Assembly (NCBI GenBank): GCA_965215765.1
Contig: OZ244118.1
Coordinates: 1,101,007 to 1,165,006, forward strand
Direction: 5' to 3'
DNA: 64,000 nt
Source of the DNA: an uncultured candidatus Porisulfidus sp.
GTDB taxonomy: Bacteria; Pseudomonadota; Gammaproteobacteria; Poriferisulfidales; Oxydemutatoraceae
Part shown: positions 1 to 64,000 of the stretch, in pieces
Numbering within the stretch: the stretch's first letter is position 1
How the letters are laid out: each line of letters starts with the position of its first letter
The notes under the pieces: generated by a model
What the model was told of the DNA's origin: nothing
What the model saw: only the letters and a program-made list of their open reading frames with translations
Database searches by the model: none
Made by a program: the position numbers and the translations under genes

Positions 1-4
1 AGCC

Positions 5-1252
5 CTATTGTCGGTTGCAATATGTTCCGAACGATTTAACGCTATCCAAAAGCCACTTAAATTCTTCCTGCGTAAGTTCTTGACCGTCAGGGCTGAATTG
101 TTTCATGTATCCAGAATACCCTGCACATTCGTACATTTCATCCACCAAACGACGAGCCTCGCTTCCCTCTCCGCCCTGAAAAACTTCCGTTTTTGTTTCT
201 ACCGGCAGTTTGCTGATCACCTTGTTGGCACAAAACATCAAGGTTTCAGTAGGGAGTACCCTCCCGCATTCTGTGGCATCCAGTGGGACGCCCAATATGC
301 CGCCATCCTTAAAATCATCACTCCATGTTGCGGTGGGTGAAGATTTCTTCATTTCCTCAATTTCAAATAGACTGTCCCCCCCCAGCGGTGCCCCCTTTTG
401 ATTTAGCGTGAGGAAGGTCAGGAAGTGTTTGGTATTGGCATTTACCTCAGGGTTATATTGATCCAATCTCTCGCCAATTCTTTTTTCCAAGGTGGCCACA
501 GTAGGTACGCATTTCCCTCCGACGTCAGAGATTGCAAGGTCAGGAAAGAGTCTCCCCCAATCAGAGCCGATATAAAAAATATCAGCAACATGATTTTTTT
601 TAAAATGATCGCGCACCTCGATATCTCTTTCTGCAATCCATGTCTGGTTATCAGAGTCTGACTTTGTGTCCGCATAATTAAGCGTAAGTACTTCCGTTGT
701 TATTGGTCGGGTACTCGCGGCGGTTTTTCCGGTTGTGGATATGGGGGTCGTTGTTTTCGCTTGGTTGAAGGTGGCTTTTTCGGGTTTGGTTGTTACTTCT
801 GTTGGCAGGCTTGTTTTTGGTTTGGTCTTTTCGGTGGAGACAGTTTGTGTGGCTTGGACGAGTGTTTCATCAGTCCGGGAGGTTTGGGCTGATGTGCTTG
901 GAGGGATGACATTGGGTTCCTCATGACCTGTGGTGTCACAGTTGGCAAGTTCTTTTAATTCAGCATTGATATAGCGGTTAAATCGCCTCCTGTCCAGCAG
1001 AGAGTTTCGTTGCACATCGGAGAGCGTGAACTCCTCGTTCCCGTTACCAAGAGTTGCAGTTAATATCTGCCTGCGTGTTTCCTGCTCCTGCTTGCGATAA
1101 TTTTTGCTGAACTTGTAGCGAAGCACGTGTACGACCCAGCCTGAGAATGACTTGTTACAGACGCATGTCTGGTTGCCATTGGCACTTCGTAATTCCAGCC
1201 TGCCTAACTGGCTGCTGGCTGCTGTTTGAATGACACTGCTGTCTATTTGCAT
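5..1252 (-). CDS. Family-A paralog A1: 415-aa hypothetical protein. Its conserved N-terminus (MQIDSSVIQ...) and C-terminus are shared with 2513..4162. The centre is T/K/P-rich and low-complexity. Possible secreted or effector-like protein.
   Basis: Complete ORF with stop TAG at 5-7. Clear paralogy (N-terminal ~100 aa and C-terminal ~200 aa) to ORF 2513..4162. No similarity to a family I can name. Confidence 0.6.
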   Translation of the reverse strand: MQIDSSVIQTAASSQLGRLELRSANGNQTCVCNKSFSGWVVHVLRYKFSKNYRKQEQETRRQILTATLGNGNEEFTLSDVQRNSLLDRRRFNRYINAELKELANCDTTGHEEPNVIPPSTSAQTSRTDETLVQATQTVSTEKTKPKTSLPTEVTTKPEKATFNQAKTTTPISTTGKTAASTRPITTEVLTLNYADTKSDSDNQTWIAERDIEVRDHFKKNHVADIFYIGSDWGRLFPDLAISDVGGKCVPTVATLEKRIGERLDQYNPEVNANTKHFLTFLTLNQKGAPLGGDSLFEIEEMKKSSPTATWSDDFKDGGILGVPLDATECGRVLPTETLMFCANKVISKLPVETKTEVFQGGEGSEARRLVDEMYECAGYSGYMKQFSPDGQELTQEEFKWLLDSVKSFGTYCNRQ

Positions 1253-1849
1253 TTTATTTCCTCACCTTATACAGCTACCAGCCCGATGCTCGCTATTTTA
1301 GCATTTTGACGACTTCGGGTACACCAACGGAAGTAACTTGGACTTTTTCGGCAGTTCAGCACTTCTCTTTAAAGGCATCCGCTTTGCCCGTTCCTGTCGC
1401 TTGATTCCTGTTGCCATTTGTTCCCAAGGTGAACGGGTTGCCGCTGGCGATAGTGCAGCCTGGTGCGTGATGGGGCAGAGACTTGCTTTACAGGGAGTGA
1501 AAGCCGGAGTTGCCAAGTATTTTGGTGAACGAGGTCGTATTCACCTTTCTCAAATTTCCCGGTGTTGGTGCAGTCATGGAGCCGGGAATGAAATCATCCG
1601 GCGAAATGAGAGGCTTTTCCAAAATCCCGGATTGCTGTCGGTTACCGCATGCCGAGCTCGGAAACCGTGTTGTCAAGCGTGCGCGATGCAGACAAAGCAG
1701 GGGCTGTTGTATTGACACGTTCTTGGCACAGACAAAACACCACGCTACCGCATCGTGGGAGAGGAGAGGCAAATTCCAACAATGGGCTCATGTCTTTTTC
1801 TTCTCCCGTTGGAAGTGCCTTGACTGGACACAGGAAAGGGGATGCGGTG

Positions 1850-2560
1850 GGGACTTGAACGCCTGGCGGAGTGAGAGAGTGCGAGACTCTGGATGTGCCT
1901 TATATCTGTCGTTCAGGATATATGCCGACACAAAATCTGCGCGAGCGTCCAATCCACTAATAGCCCTATTGTCGGTTGCAAATGCTCCGAACGATTTAAC
2001 GCCATCCAAAAGCCACTTAAATTCTTCCTGCGTAAGTTCTTGACCGTCAGGGCTGAATTCTTTCCTGTATTCAGGATCCGCTGAACATCTGACGTTCAGG
2101 ATATATGCCGACACAAAATCCGTGCAAGCACCCAATCCACTAATAGTCCTCTTGGTTGCAATATGCCCCGAACGATGTAACGCCACGCAAAAGCCACTCA
2201 AAACTCTCTGCGTAAGTTCTTGAACGCTTGGCGGAGTGAGAGAGTGTGAGACTCCGGAGATGCCTTATATCTGACGTTCAGGGTATAAGCCGACACAAAA
2301 TCCGTGCGAGCGTCCAATTCACCAATAGATCTACTGGTTGCAATATATTCCGAATGATGTAGTGGCCTTCAAAAGCCACTCAAAACTCTCTGCGTAAGTT
2401 CTTGAACGCTTGGCGGAGTGAGAGAGTGTGAGACTCCGGAGATGCCTTATATCTGACGTTCAGGGTATAAGCCGACACAAAATCCGTGCGAGCGTCCAAT
2501 TCGCCAATAGATCTACTGGTTGCAAAATGATCCGAACGATGCAACGTATTCCAAAAGCCA
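1850..2560 (-). repeat. About 4 degenerate tandem copies (175-190 bp) of the 3' terminus of the family-A gene. These are pseudogene fragments encoding ...FSPDGQELTQEEFKWLLD.VKSFG.
   Basis: The motif ctaatag..ctattgtcggttgcaa...gaacgatttaacgc recurs at ~1961, 2141, 2316 and 2505. ORF fragments 1788..2201(-) and 2380..2676(-) repeat the C-terminus of A1/A2. Confidence 0.75.
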
Positions 2561-61783: not shown

Positions 61784-61789
61784 GCTAGC

Positions 61790-62419
61790 TCAGCCCGCCC
61801 GCTCATCCGGCAACAGGCGAAGTGCTTGCAGCGTTTTACCCACAAGCTGCTCGCTGTGGCTTCCCTGCTGGTAATTCTTCATCAGTCGCTCTATCTCAAA
61901 ACAAGTGACATGGAAGTCTTCGTTGACAACCAGGTAGTCAAAATCCTGCCAGTGTGCCATTTCATCAGCGGCACTGAGTAACCTGTTTTCCACGATCCCG
62001 GTCGTGTCCAAGTTACGCTTTAGAAGGCGTCTTCGCAGCTCTTCGTGCGAAGGGGGTAGTATGAAAATAGAACAAGTATTTGCAAGATGCTTGCGAATTT
62101 GCGCAGCACCCTGCCAGTCGATTTCCAAAACCGCATCCCCGTTTGCCAGCGCTGTATTCATGGCATCGAAGGTGGTTCCGTAATAGCTCCCGTGGACTTC
62201 GGCGTACTCCAGAAACTGGTCGTTGTCGACCATATTCTGAAATTCCACCTGGTCAACAAAATGATAGTCCAAGGCATTTTGCTCCCCCCTGCGTTGGGCT
62301 CGCGTGGTGTGAGAAACGCTGAACGCCAAGTTGCTGTTTCGCTTGACAAGCCACTTGATGATCGAAGTTTTTCCCGCACCGGAAGGAGCGGAGAACACAT
62401 AACAAGTTCCTGCTTGCAT
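61790..62419 (-). CDS. gmk: Guanylate kinase. The start is probably the internal ATG (MQAGTCYVFSAPSGAGK).
   Basis: SAPSGAGKTS P-loop. HTTRAQRRGEQNALDYHFV is the GMP-binding block. Confidence 0.9.
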   Translation of the reverse strand: MQAGTCYVFSAPSGAGKTSIIKWLVKRNSNLAFSVSHTTRAQRRGEQNALDYHFVDQVEFQNMVDNDQFLEYAEVHGSYYGTTFDAMNTALANGDAVLEIDWQGAAQIRKHLANTCSIFILPPSHEELRRRLLKRNLDTTGIVENRLLSAADEMAHWQDFDYLVVNEDFHVTCFEIERLMKNYQQGSHSEQLVGKTLQALRLLPDERAG

Positions 62420-62888
62420 TGTCGAACCCGAAAAGCGACCGGCTCGAGACTGGTACATAAAGAGAAAACGTACTACTGTCTTTGCCGTAATGATTGATAC
62501 GGCTTCTCTGACAGGTGCTGGTACTGAGTCGTTTGTTCAGAGTGACGGAAAATCGCCGAGATCACAGATGGGGACAACGGACTTGCTGAAGCTCGAACGA
62601 TCCTTCCGGAGCCAGTTTCCAGACTTTTGACTGGATTTTTGTGCTGGATCATGTCGGCAAATTCTGCTCGTTACTTGCGAGTTTTCAGTTCTTTTGAACT
62701 GTTGAGGAGTGTAGCACGGAGGCTGGCAACTCCGCAGGTATTTCATGGTTTTTTTGGGTCATTCAAATACGCCGGAACGCCGACCCGCTTGCTTCTTGAA
62801 ACAGAGGAAGGCGAAGACCGCATGATGTGAGCCCGGGAAACGCTATGGATTACTTTTGGACAAAGCATAAGTTGCCGGATGCCTCGCG

Positions 62889-64000
62889 ATGCCGGATGCT
62901 GAGAGAAAATGTAATTCATTCCGCCGCCTGTTATCCTCTCCTCCGCCAATGCTCATCAATGACCCGGAGTACACGAAGATGCGGAGCCAGGTGGGGGTAA
63001 CCATGCCAGCACTTGCGGCGTCCCGTCATTTCAAAAGCGAACTCCCGCCGGTGTCCTCCCTGACTTTTGCCATGCTTGAGCACCGTGGTCGTGGTCGTGG
63101 TCGTGGTCGTGGTCGTGGTCAGAATAACTTGTCTGTTCGAAGGTGGGATGAGACGGGTATCAAGAACTGGTTAAGCAAAGCTGGGCGACTGCCGTTTTTT
63201 GGTCTCGCCCTGGCATTGATCAGCAGCACTCGCATTGATGGCTGCCTCGCACCGAGACGCCGTCTGAATGGCTCGCCGCGATTCGCTTTTGGCAGTGCTT
63301 GAGCTTGAGCACCGTGGTCGTGGTCGTGGTCAGAATAACTTGTCTGCTCGAAGGCTAAATGAGATGGGTATCAAGAACTGGCTAAACAAAGCTGGGCGAC
63401 TGCCGTTTTTTGGTCTTGCCCTGGCATTGATCAACAGCACTCGCATTGATGGCTGCCTCGTACCAAGATGCCGTCTGAATGGCTCGCCGCGATTCGCTTT
63501 TGGCAGCACTTGAGCTTGAGCACCGTGGTCGTGGTCGTGGTCAGAATAACTTGTCTGTTCGAAGGCTAAATGAGATGGGTATCAAGAACTGGCTAAACAA
63601 AGCCGGGCAGCTGCTGTTTTTTGGTCTTGCCCTGGCATTGATCAGCAGCACTCGCATTGATGGCTGCCTCGCACCGAGACGCCGTCTGAATGGCTCGCCG
63701 CGATTCGTTTTGGCAGCACTTGAGCTTGAGCACCGTGGTCGTGGTCGTGGTCAGAATAACTTGTCTGTTCGAAGGCTAAATGAGATGGGTATCAAGAACT
63801 GGCTAAACAAAGTTGGGCAGCTGCCGTTTATTGGTCTCGCCCTGGCGTTGATCAGCAGCACTCGCATTGATGGCTGCCTCGCACCGAGACGCCGTCTGAA
63901 AGGCTCGCTGCGATTCGCTTTTGGCAGCACTTGAGCTTGAGCACCGTGGTCGTGGTCAGAATAATTTGTCTGTTCGAAGGCTAAATGAGATGGGTATCAA
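62889..64000. repeat. At least 5 tandem copies (~210-230 bp) running off the window end. Each carries a (CGTGGT)n hexamer microsatellite, n=8 in the first unit and 2-3 in the others.
   Basis: gagcaccgtggtcgtggtc recurs at 63079, 63308, 63519, 63729 and 63939. Confidence 0.85.

Follow-up and report, generated by a model that had tools for sequence, protein, structure and literature searches.

Dense short tandem duplications overlapping gene ends in a 64-kb window of an uncultured gammaproteobacterium and in its relatives

This study deals with the short tandem duplications present in a 64,000-nucleotide (nt) stretch of DNA from an uncultured candidatus Porisulfidus sp. (assembly GCA_965215765.1, contig OZ244118.1, positions 1,101,007 to 1,165,006); the whole stretch is called the window here, and positions are counted from its first letter. 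Duplications of 100-500 bp that overlap gene ends are unusually dense in this DNA, they are real and they are still changing. It is probable that they come from a clade-wide high load of short duplications formed independently of homology, the positions of which are filtered by purifying selection.

Arrays were detected with Tandem Repeats Finder, and the larger duplications by self-BLAST of the window. Nine arrays were found, with periods of 152-318 bp and 2-10.8 copies, and the offsets obtained by self-BLAST concurred. The sequence-only reading of this DNA, which had counted at least eight sites of tandem copies, was thus borne out. Arrays with a period of at least 100 bp occupied 8,136 of the 64,000 bases of the window (12.7%; 141 per Mb). 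As background, 80 other gammaproteobacterial mutS loci were analysed, and they contained 8 arrays that covered 4,888 of 1,476,458 bases (0.33%; 5.4 per Mb), so the excess was about 26-fold in array number and about 38-fold in bases. Taking together the window and the syntenic 45-62 kb of two relatives, the array density was 113-141 per Mb. The same reading had placed the units between 150 and 320 bp, which holds for the nine arrays, but the window also carries in-frame repeats of 42 bp and units of 831 bp, 1,329 bp and about 2.5 kb. Its statement that nearly every intergenic junction is affected was too strong, as about 6 of roughly 20 junctions were hit between 4.2 and 29 kb.

All arrays but one include the start or the stop of a gene that is left intact at one edge of the array, and the remaining one abuts such a start or stop. 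The first unit, of 182 bp (4.0 copies at 1854-2588, with 80% matches in Tandem Repeats Finder, as for the percentages that follow), is the 3′ end of the family-A2 gene, whose stop lies at 2513 on the minus strand; an open reading frame (ORF) at 1788-2201 is a family-A C-terminal fragment. The 231-bp unit (3.0 copies, 4254-4945, 93%) is formed by the last 12 nt of mutS (stop at 4934) and the region upstream of family-A2. At the other end of mutS, the 218-bp unit (4.0 copies, exactly 4.005, at 7463-8335, 98%) covers 24 nt at the start of mutS, ~113 nt at the start of pncC and the intergenic region between these divergent genes. Copy 1 provides the start of the intact mutS (7486) and copy 4 that of the intact pncC (8222), and the array produces three pncC fragments of 69 amino acids (aa).

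Further along, the 318-bp unit (3.0 copies, exactly 3.000, 12487-13440, 99%) consists of the last 79 nt of folP (stop at 12565) together with the last ~240 nt of the convergent thiE (stop at 13198). The 279-bp unit (3.0 copies, 18746-19579, 98%) contains the last ~245 nt of trpC (stop at 19334) and the downstream spacer. The longest array in copy number has a 152-bp unit (10.8 copies, 23137-24788, with higher-order periods of 304 and 456) that comprises the first ~108 nt of trpE (start at 23244) and upstream DNA, and the array extends to the stop of rpe. Two arrays lie among the genes of family B. The 272-bp unit (3.1 copies, 46970-47824, 86% matches) forms an older array related to two copies of a 272-bp family-B downstream unit that self-BLAST located at 38878-39405, beginning 26 nt past the stop of the family-B gene 37542-38852. 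The 300-bp unit (2.0 copies, 54530-55114, 84% matches) straddles the stop (54697) of the family-B gene 53264-54697. Finally, the 211-bp unit (at least 4.3 copies, 63102-64000), which had been described simply as following gmk, ends at the window edge and joins the 5′ end of dsrE (76 nt) to the 137 nt that precede this gene, as recognised from the single-copy sequence in a relative (locus L086). At the left edge of this array a CGTGGT hexamer is present six times (63084-63120) and is repeated at each unit start; the sister strain described below has the same run. The gene names mutS, pncC, folP, thiE, trpC, trpE and gmk assigned earlier from the letters were correct, and an intact gene starts or ends within each of the eight sites named then.

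The origin of the DNA and its relatives were then considered. Residues 9-850 of the window MutS are identical to the protein recorded on a 2,997,607-bp contig. A scan of GTDB species with MutS found no close species representative, the best match having 54% identity. A 156-kb contig of ENA analysis ERZ25071281 carries an identical MutS and shows 98-99% identity to the window; it represents a sister strain and not the same sequence (~1% divergence). The loci of this strain are L001, L084 and L088, and two sister contigs have 13x and 8x coverage. Two other relatives are circular contigs: one of 1,918,571 bp at 58x with a MutS 94% identical (locus L082 among others; ena:ERZ25069837 ctg28099_58x_c), and one of 2,000,500 bp at 87x with a MutS 85% identical (loci L083, L085 and L087; ena:ERZ25766962 ctg17160_87x_c). 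They are called here the 58x and the 87x genome. A circular 1.94-Mb genome at 77x with a MutS of 55% identity and contig names styled alike (ena:ERZ25070185 ctg137346_77x_c) was used as outgroup. By their format, the contig names resemble the output of a long-read metagenome assembler.

In the relatives dsrE, dsrF, dsrH and dsrC adjoin gmk and are followed by selU, purM and nadA (L086 6685-8413, L087 4896-7175, L088 6192-7835), a region that lies beyond the right end of the window. The lysyl-tRNA synthetase of the window (LysS, 59885-61783) is of class I, archaeal type, with 327 bits on TIGR00467, and it is closest (55%) to the enzymes of Nitrosococcus oceani, Chromatiaceae and Thiosymbion or gutless-worm symbionts. 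Given the DsrE/F/H/C genes beside gmk, these LysS affinities and the lack of a close GTDB MutS, the organism is, as far as its genes indicate, a sulfur-oxidising gammaproteobacterium of an undescribed lineage. The window genome is apparently ~3.0 Mb, compared with 1.92 and 2.00 Mb for the circular relatives. Coding density, roughly estimated from ORF coordinates, is ~67% in the window versus ~89% in the 58x relative (L082), and mutS and lysS lie 53 kb apart in the window, against 30 kb (58x genome) and ~40 kb (87x genome) in the relatives, a difference that is due mainly to family B and the arrays.

Array by array, the sister strain keeps the 218 × 4, 318/322 × 3 and 279 × 3 arrays at the same copy number as the window. 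When the 218-bp arrays of both strains were compared, orthologous copies differed by 0, 0, 0 and 1 nt and paralogous copies by 2-7 nt. Because orthologous copies are closer than paralogous ones, this array predates the strain split, after which it remained stable. Copy number differs at other sites, with 3 copies in the window versus ~10 in the sister strain for the 231-bp unit, 10.8 versus 6.8 for the 152-bp unit and at least 4.3 versus 3.9 for the 211-bp unit. The proposal that the copies are near-identical and hence recent was therefore right in part: some arrays reach 98-99%, but copy identity within arrays spans 80% to 99% and the 218 × 4 array is older than the strain split.

At every comparable window site (218, 231, 279, 318, 152 and 211-bp units) the 94% and 85% relatives are single-copy; by locus, this state was seen for the 231 and 318-bp units in L082, for the 279-bp unit in L082 and L083, for the 152-bp unit in L085 and for the 211-bp unit in L086 and L087. 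Arrays with up to 8% internal divergence are absent from a relative that is ~9% diverged in DNA. The relatives carry arrays of their own at other gene ends. In the 58x genome these are a 105-bp unit × 3 at the rubredoxin 3′ end, 296 bp × 3.8 at the selU 3′ end and 342 bp × 3 at the lysS 3′ end. The 87x genome has 146 bp × 2 at the thiD 5′ end, 231 bp × 3 at the mutS 3′ end, 246 bp with more than 7 copies at the carA 5′ end, 239 bp × 10.9 at the rpe 5′ end, 237 bp × 4.1 at the dsrH 3′ end and 487 bp × 3 in an insertion sequence (IS) orfA of the helix-turn-helix type. One inherited origin was ruled out for the 231-bp arrays at the mutS 3′ end of the window and of L083, as they cover different segments; they are independent events and their equal period is a coincidence. 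In the outgroup no array with a period of at least 100 bp was present within 22.6 kb. With two relatives having a similar array density at different gene ends and the 55% outgroup having none, the suggestion of a lineage-specific process was upheld, and the comparison shows a process that is specific to the clade, long-running and still active.

Regarding how the duplications are formed, the remainders of the clean arrays are informative. They are 1 nt for 218 × 4.005, 0 for 318 × 3.000, 3 for 105 × 3.03 (L082), 0 for 146 × 2.000 (L083) and 0 for 487 × 3.000 (L087). A direct repeat of at least 5 nt at the array end, which is expected of slipped-strand mispairing, was lacking in 5 of the 6 clean arrays (0-3 nt). 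In a study of bacterial duplications, junctions of 0-4 bp are assigned to events of the non-homologous end joining type or to replication template switching, and those of 5-25 bp to microhomology-mediated end joining (MMEJ) (bioRxiv 10.64898/2026.05.22.727201). Since the junctions share 0-3 nt and slippage or MMEJ needs ~5-25 nt, the first duplication is most likely homology-independent, and an origin by slippage between short direct repeats, as had been put forward, does not agree with these junctions. The initial step would be a sister-strand event of ~100-500 bp, less often of 0.8-6.6 kb, that needs essentially no homology; it could result from a template switch where a fork stalls or from a process akin to end joining. 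Once two copies exist, growth and shrinkage would proceed by slippage or unequal exchange between them, because copy numbers differ between strains and the 152-bp array has a higher-order structure of 304 and 456 bp. Pairwise copy distances showed no consistent gradient toward one array end. Runs of A or T seemed frequent at the junctions; we make no claim on them, as eight junctions are too few and their phase is ambiguous.

A second aspect is why this lineage should accumulate such duplications. Their persistence is probably due to inefficient removal, to weak selection in a population that is small and host-restricted, or to the two combined. The truncated pseudo-ORFs, the multiplied promoter regions and the low coding density are by-products. 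The MutS of the window is full length, with 1,017 bits over the whole TIGR01070 model, and its translation shows the GDFYELF mismatch-binding motif and the GPNMGGKST Walker A motif. Because the protein is complete and has both motifs, loss of mutS is not the cause, and the relaxed mismatch-repair background considered initially is not indicated. One lead concerns recA. In the window (8722-9225), in the sister strain and in both relatives (L082 and L083, 8900-9920) the pair recA-recX is missing from the position next to pncC (cinA) and mutS where it is usually found; in these genomes a small ORF, orn, lepA and folP come after pncC. In the outgroup the order is pncC-recA-recX-alaS-lysC-csrA (L089 7718-9923), and recA lies within the fetched mutS flank in 43 of the 80 background loci. 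No recA-like sequence was found anywhere in the sampled region of the window, the sister strain or both relatives. The gene may simply have been relocated in the clade. The removal of duplications by recombination between copies is reportedly RecA dependent in Salmonella, and if recA had been lost this removal would be impaired. It is conceivable, on a tentative basis, that the clade acquired a heritable change in replication or recombination that both yields and keeps blunt-junction duplications of about 100-500 bp much more frequently than in other bacteria, with the loss or relocation of recA-recX as the lead. If true, the clade, in which several closed genomes differ array by array, would be a natural system for the birth of tandem repeats, gene fragments and possibly new genes, and an independent second origin of the phenomenon known in Ehrlichia ruminantium. 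The other candidate cause is weak selection in a population that is small and restricted to a host.

A key aspect is where the arrays lie relative to genes. Of 15 arrays in the housekeeping regions of the window and the relatives, none was inside a coding sequence (CDS), and 13 contained the end of an intact gene. Under random placement the probability of falling inside a CDS was 0.28-0.81 per array, which gives a joint probability of ~2e-7 for 0 of 15. Both 5′ and 3′ ends were hit, at divergent, convergent and co-directional junctions, and the CDS portion included in the units was 12 to 245 nt. All the intragenic arrays that were seen have a period divisible by 3 (42, 96, 111, 135, 18 and 12 bp) and are in lineage-specific proteins. 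If a segment S becomes S-S, a gene crossing the left edge would remain intact in the first copy and a gene crossing the right edge in the last copy, while a gene containing S would be interrupted. Purifying selection, and not the site of origin, would then set the visible positions, and duplications of a gene end or of a whole small gene would survive. Four classes of survivors were all observed, namely gene-end, whole-gene (1,329-bp, 487-bp and ~2.5-kb), purely intergenic and in-frame in tolerant proteins. The arrays are at gene ends, by this argument, because only such duplications spare one intact copy of each flanking gene, and judging from the placement statistics the position is most likely set by purifying selection rather than by transcription and translation boundaries.

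The sequence-only reading had instead proposed a process acting at those boundaries. In such a model duplications would arise preferentially there, because forks run into transcription or translation complexes or are halted by promoters or terminators, and local template switching would follow. The contact of every array with a gene end agrees with it, and junctions of 0-3 nt are compatible with template switching at stalled forks. Starts and stops are nevertheless hit alike, irrespective of the orientation of the junction, and breakpoints located 12-245 nt within the CDS instead of at promoters or terminators fit poorly with a process acting at promoters, terminators or ribosome-binding sites. 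Unit ends have no hairpins, in-frame duplications do arise inside tolerant genes, and a plain selection filter gives the same pattern with no extra assumption. Such targeting is therefore unnecessary, and we regard it as unlikely.

Several points weigh against a clade-wide load of homology-independent duplications sorted by purifying selection. Selection and mutational bias predict an identical surviving set, and the preference for units of 100-350 bp (median about 235 bp) goes beyond what the filter alone explains. The formation mechanism rests on six clean junctions, and one array of the 87x genome (181 × 2.11, L087) has a terminal overlap of 20 nt that is compatible with slippage. A single syntenic neighbourhood of about 45-75 kb, from mutS to dsr, was sampled per genome, so a genome-wide trait is assumed. 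Copy numbers in the 13x and 8x sister contigs are uncertain, and the evidence is at the level of contigs and not of raw reads. Finally, host restriction and a small population are deduced only from the relatives of ~2 Mb and from the lineage-specific repeat proteins.

It could also be thought that the arrays are adaptive, with multiplied promoters, 5′ leaders or 3′ ends that tune the expression of neighbouring genes or act as contingency loci. Promoter regions are indeed multiplied at mutS/pncC, trpE, dsrE, carA and rpe, and copy number varies at the strain level. Against this, the affected genes are unrelated housekeeping genes that are different in three genomes, with no parallel gain across lineages, many arrays multiply 3′ ends only, and the non-functional copies gather substitutions freely, up to 20%. 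Phase-variable contingency repeats have units of 1-10 bp in a reading frame or a promoter spacer and switch a gene on or off. The units described here (105-487 bp) are far longer than those, and the flanking genes are intact at any copy number. An adaptive role thus seems quite improbable.

An artefact, with short repeats expanded by the assembler or chimeric reads produced by amplification, was considered given that the window and sister contigs come from metagenome assemblies and that two sister contigs are at 13x and 8x. The copies differ by 1-20% instead of being identical, copy-specific single-nucleotide polymorphisms are common to two independent assemblies, arrays are present in four independent assemblies, two of them circular (58x and 87x), the outgroup with similar contig names has none, and avoidance of gene interiors is not expected of artefacts. 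An assembly origin is thus very improbable.

The nature of the units bears on whether mobile or selfish repeats, such as miniature inverted-repeat transposable elements (MITEs), repetitive extragenic palindromic elements, IS remnants or satellite-like sequences, inserted between genes and were then amplified. The 218, 231, 279, 318, 152 and 211-bp units each match single-copy orthologous DNA in the relatives, with which these ordinary local sequences are collinear, and by self-BLAST of the window the housekeeping-locus units share no sequence with each other. No inverted repeats or hairpins, terminal inverted repeats included, were present at unit ends in the units examined, and hairpin, MITE and snap-back models were dropped for this reason. 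No transposase match turned up among the window proteins scanned. ARAGORN detected 0 tRNA genes in the 64-kb window, and no Rfam family reached the gathering threshold in it, including no call of a thiamine pyrophosphate riboswitch near thiD/thiE. The proposal that the duplications are not IS-mediated was correct in the light of the unit ends and the single-copy orthologues. IS fragments (DDE_Tnp_IS1595 and rve_3) lie beside the family-B region of the 87x relative (L085 5735-6067, L087 13811-18934), one array is the 487-bp IS orfA already mentioned, and Wolbachia repeats contain hairpin elements (PMC3287509), yet with these features of the housekeeping units a mobile origin has hardly any credence.

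The closest precedent is Ehrlichia ruminantium, for which gene duplication and truncation have reportedly also been described by Collins et al. As here, it has many head-to-tail arrays with units of ~100-300 bp in non-coding DNA and at gene ends, copy-number change at the strain level, low coding density (~64% versus ~67%) and a very high repeat load. Tandem repeats make up 6.3% of its genome with a mean period of 139 bp, which Riegler et al. described as the highest reported for bacteria, against 0.38% in E. coli (PMC3287509). The genome papers of 2005 (PNAS) and of Frutos et al. 2006 (J Bacteriol) are summarised in PMC10710844 and in Table 4 of PMC3287509. The local load here is twice as high (12.7% versus 6.3%) but was measured on one selected window. 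The two organisms differ in that E. ruminantium is an alphaproteobacterial tick-borne pathogen of ~29% guanine plus cytosine (GC), and here the host of the arrays is a gammaproteobacterial sulfur oxidiser of ~52% GC. E. ruminantium is intracellular; here a host-associated life may be hinted at, indirectly, by the 1.92 and 2.00-Mb relatives and the lineage-specific repeat proteins. Slipped-strand mispairing is the mechanism cited for the E. ruminantium repeats in PMC3287509, whereas homology of 0-3 nt was found here in 5 of 6 clean junctions.

Other systems share part of these features. VNTR-105 and VNTR-141 of Wolbachia wMel, variable number tandem repeats, are also intergenic units of 105-141 bp with copy number differing between close strains (PMC3287509). 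They differ in having 23-bp hairpins and internal short repeats and in affecting few loci, 1.6% of the genome (PMC3287509); the units here are plain local gene-end sequence with no hairpins, in arrays far denser. Spontaneous tandem duplications of laboratory bacteria are likewise head-to-tail, with junctions of 0-3 nt and no IS or rrn repeats at their ends (bioRxiv 10.64898/2026.05.22.727201). Those duplications are of tens to hundreds of kilobases, unstable and held by dosage selection, in contrast to units of 0.1-0.5 kb that are fixed, some of them stable across strain divergence, and of no obvious dosage benefit. Work of the Roth laboratory is also said to describe spontaneous tandem duplications with no flanking homology in laboratory bacteria. 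In Anaplasmataceae, tandem-repeat proteins (TRP) act as effectors and the map1/p28 outer membrane proteins form clusters of tandem paralogues; map1 is mentioned in PMC7343930. The window resembles them in its in-frame repeats within lineage-specific proteins (42/96 bp in family A, ~190 aa in family B) and in a cluster of about ten paralogues, but no sequence or Pfam similarity was found between them and families A or B.

No relevant report of such arrays in sulfur-oxidising or other symbionts emerged from literature searches. We regard the present case as a separate and previously undescribed instance of a genome state that is rare but already known, not as a system of a new kind. Genomes shaped by long-unit tandem repeats are known from very few bacteria, with E. 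ruminantium as the textbook example, and an independent case in an unrelated gammaproteobacterium shows that this state can arise repeatedly. With the window genome of ~3.0 Mb, the circular relatives of 1.9-2.0 Mb, the sister strain and an outgroup free of arrays, array gain, growth and decay can be dated and linked to repair genes. The case also illustrates that purifying selection alone can make a random mutational process seem aimed at gene boundaries. In practical terms, such genomes mislead gene callers with truncated pseudo-ORFs, and they will break or collapse in short-read assemblies.

Larger duplications were also seen by self-BLAST. A tandem duplication of 1,329 bp on the plus strand (16418-19082, 95.9% identity) holds two full copies of a glutamine amidotransferase gene (16631-17374 and 17944-18687) and, in addition, a single trpC-3′ unit (17433-17773). 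This gene, located between a MATE transporter gene and trpC, is present twice in the window and the sister strain, once in L082 (58x) and is absent from L083 (87x). An ORF-poor stretch between family-B genes contains an 831-bp tandem duplication (45567-46992, 98.5% identity), and a segmental duplication of 6.6 kb was also detected in the window. At 47836-60327 there is a tandem array of about five units of 2.2-2.6 kb (the ~2.5-kb units), each with a family-B gene and a conserved 5′ module of ~1 kb. These units include the last ~440 nt of lysS, which makes them a ninth gene-end case on a larger scale: of the lysS 3′ copies, those at 52251-52866 and 57164-57789 are fragments and that at 59885-60327 is the genuine 3′ end. 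A fragment of 147 aa at 57347-57796 is 97% identical to the LysS C-terminus, and together with the three pncC fragments it confirms that truncated pseudo-ORFs are created, as anticipated.

Families A and B themselves had no Pfam or NCBIfam match. Family B (29300-60330) is formed by about ten tandem paralogues with a shared 5′ module of ~1.0-1.2 kb at 79-94% identity and variable 3′ parts; the module covers upstream DNA and roughly the first 200 codons, starting MANSVGNLF. One of its proteins, of 1,702 aa (31580-36688), has internal repeats of ~190 aa and linkers rich in P and Q, and the proteins of this family may be secreted or located at the surface. In the lineage-specific proteins of family A (5-1252 and 2513-4162; L001 17869-18626; L082 13187-13486) both the N-terminal and the C-terminal part are conserved, and the region between them, rich in S, T, P and Q, carries in-frame tandem repeats. 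Inside family-A2, on the minus strand, a 42-bp (14-aa) unit is repeated in frame 3.1 times (3403-3532), a tolerated intragenic duplication. The family-A in-frame repeat is of 42 bp in the window; in the sister strain, as in the 94% relative, it measures 96 bp.

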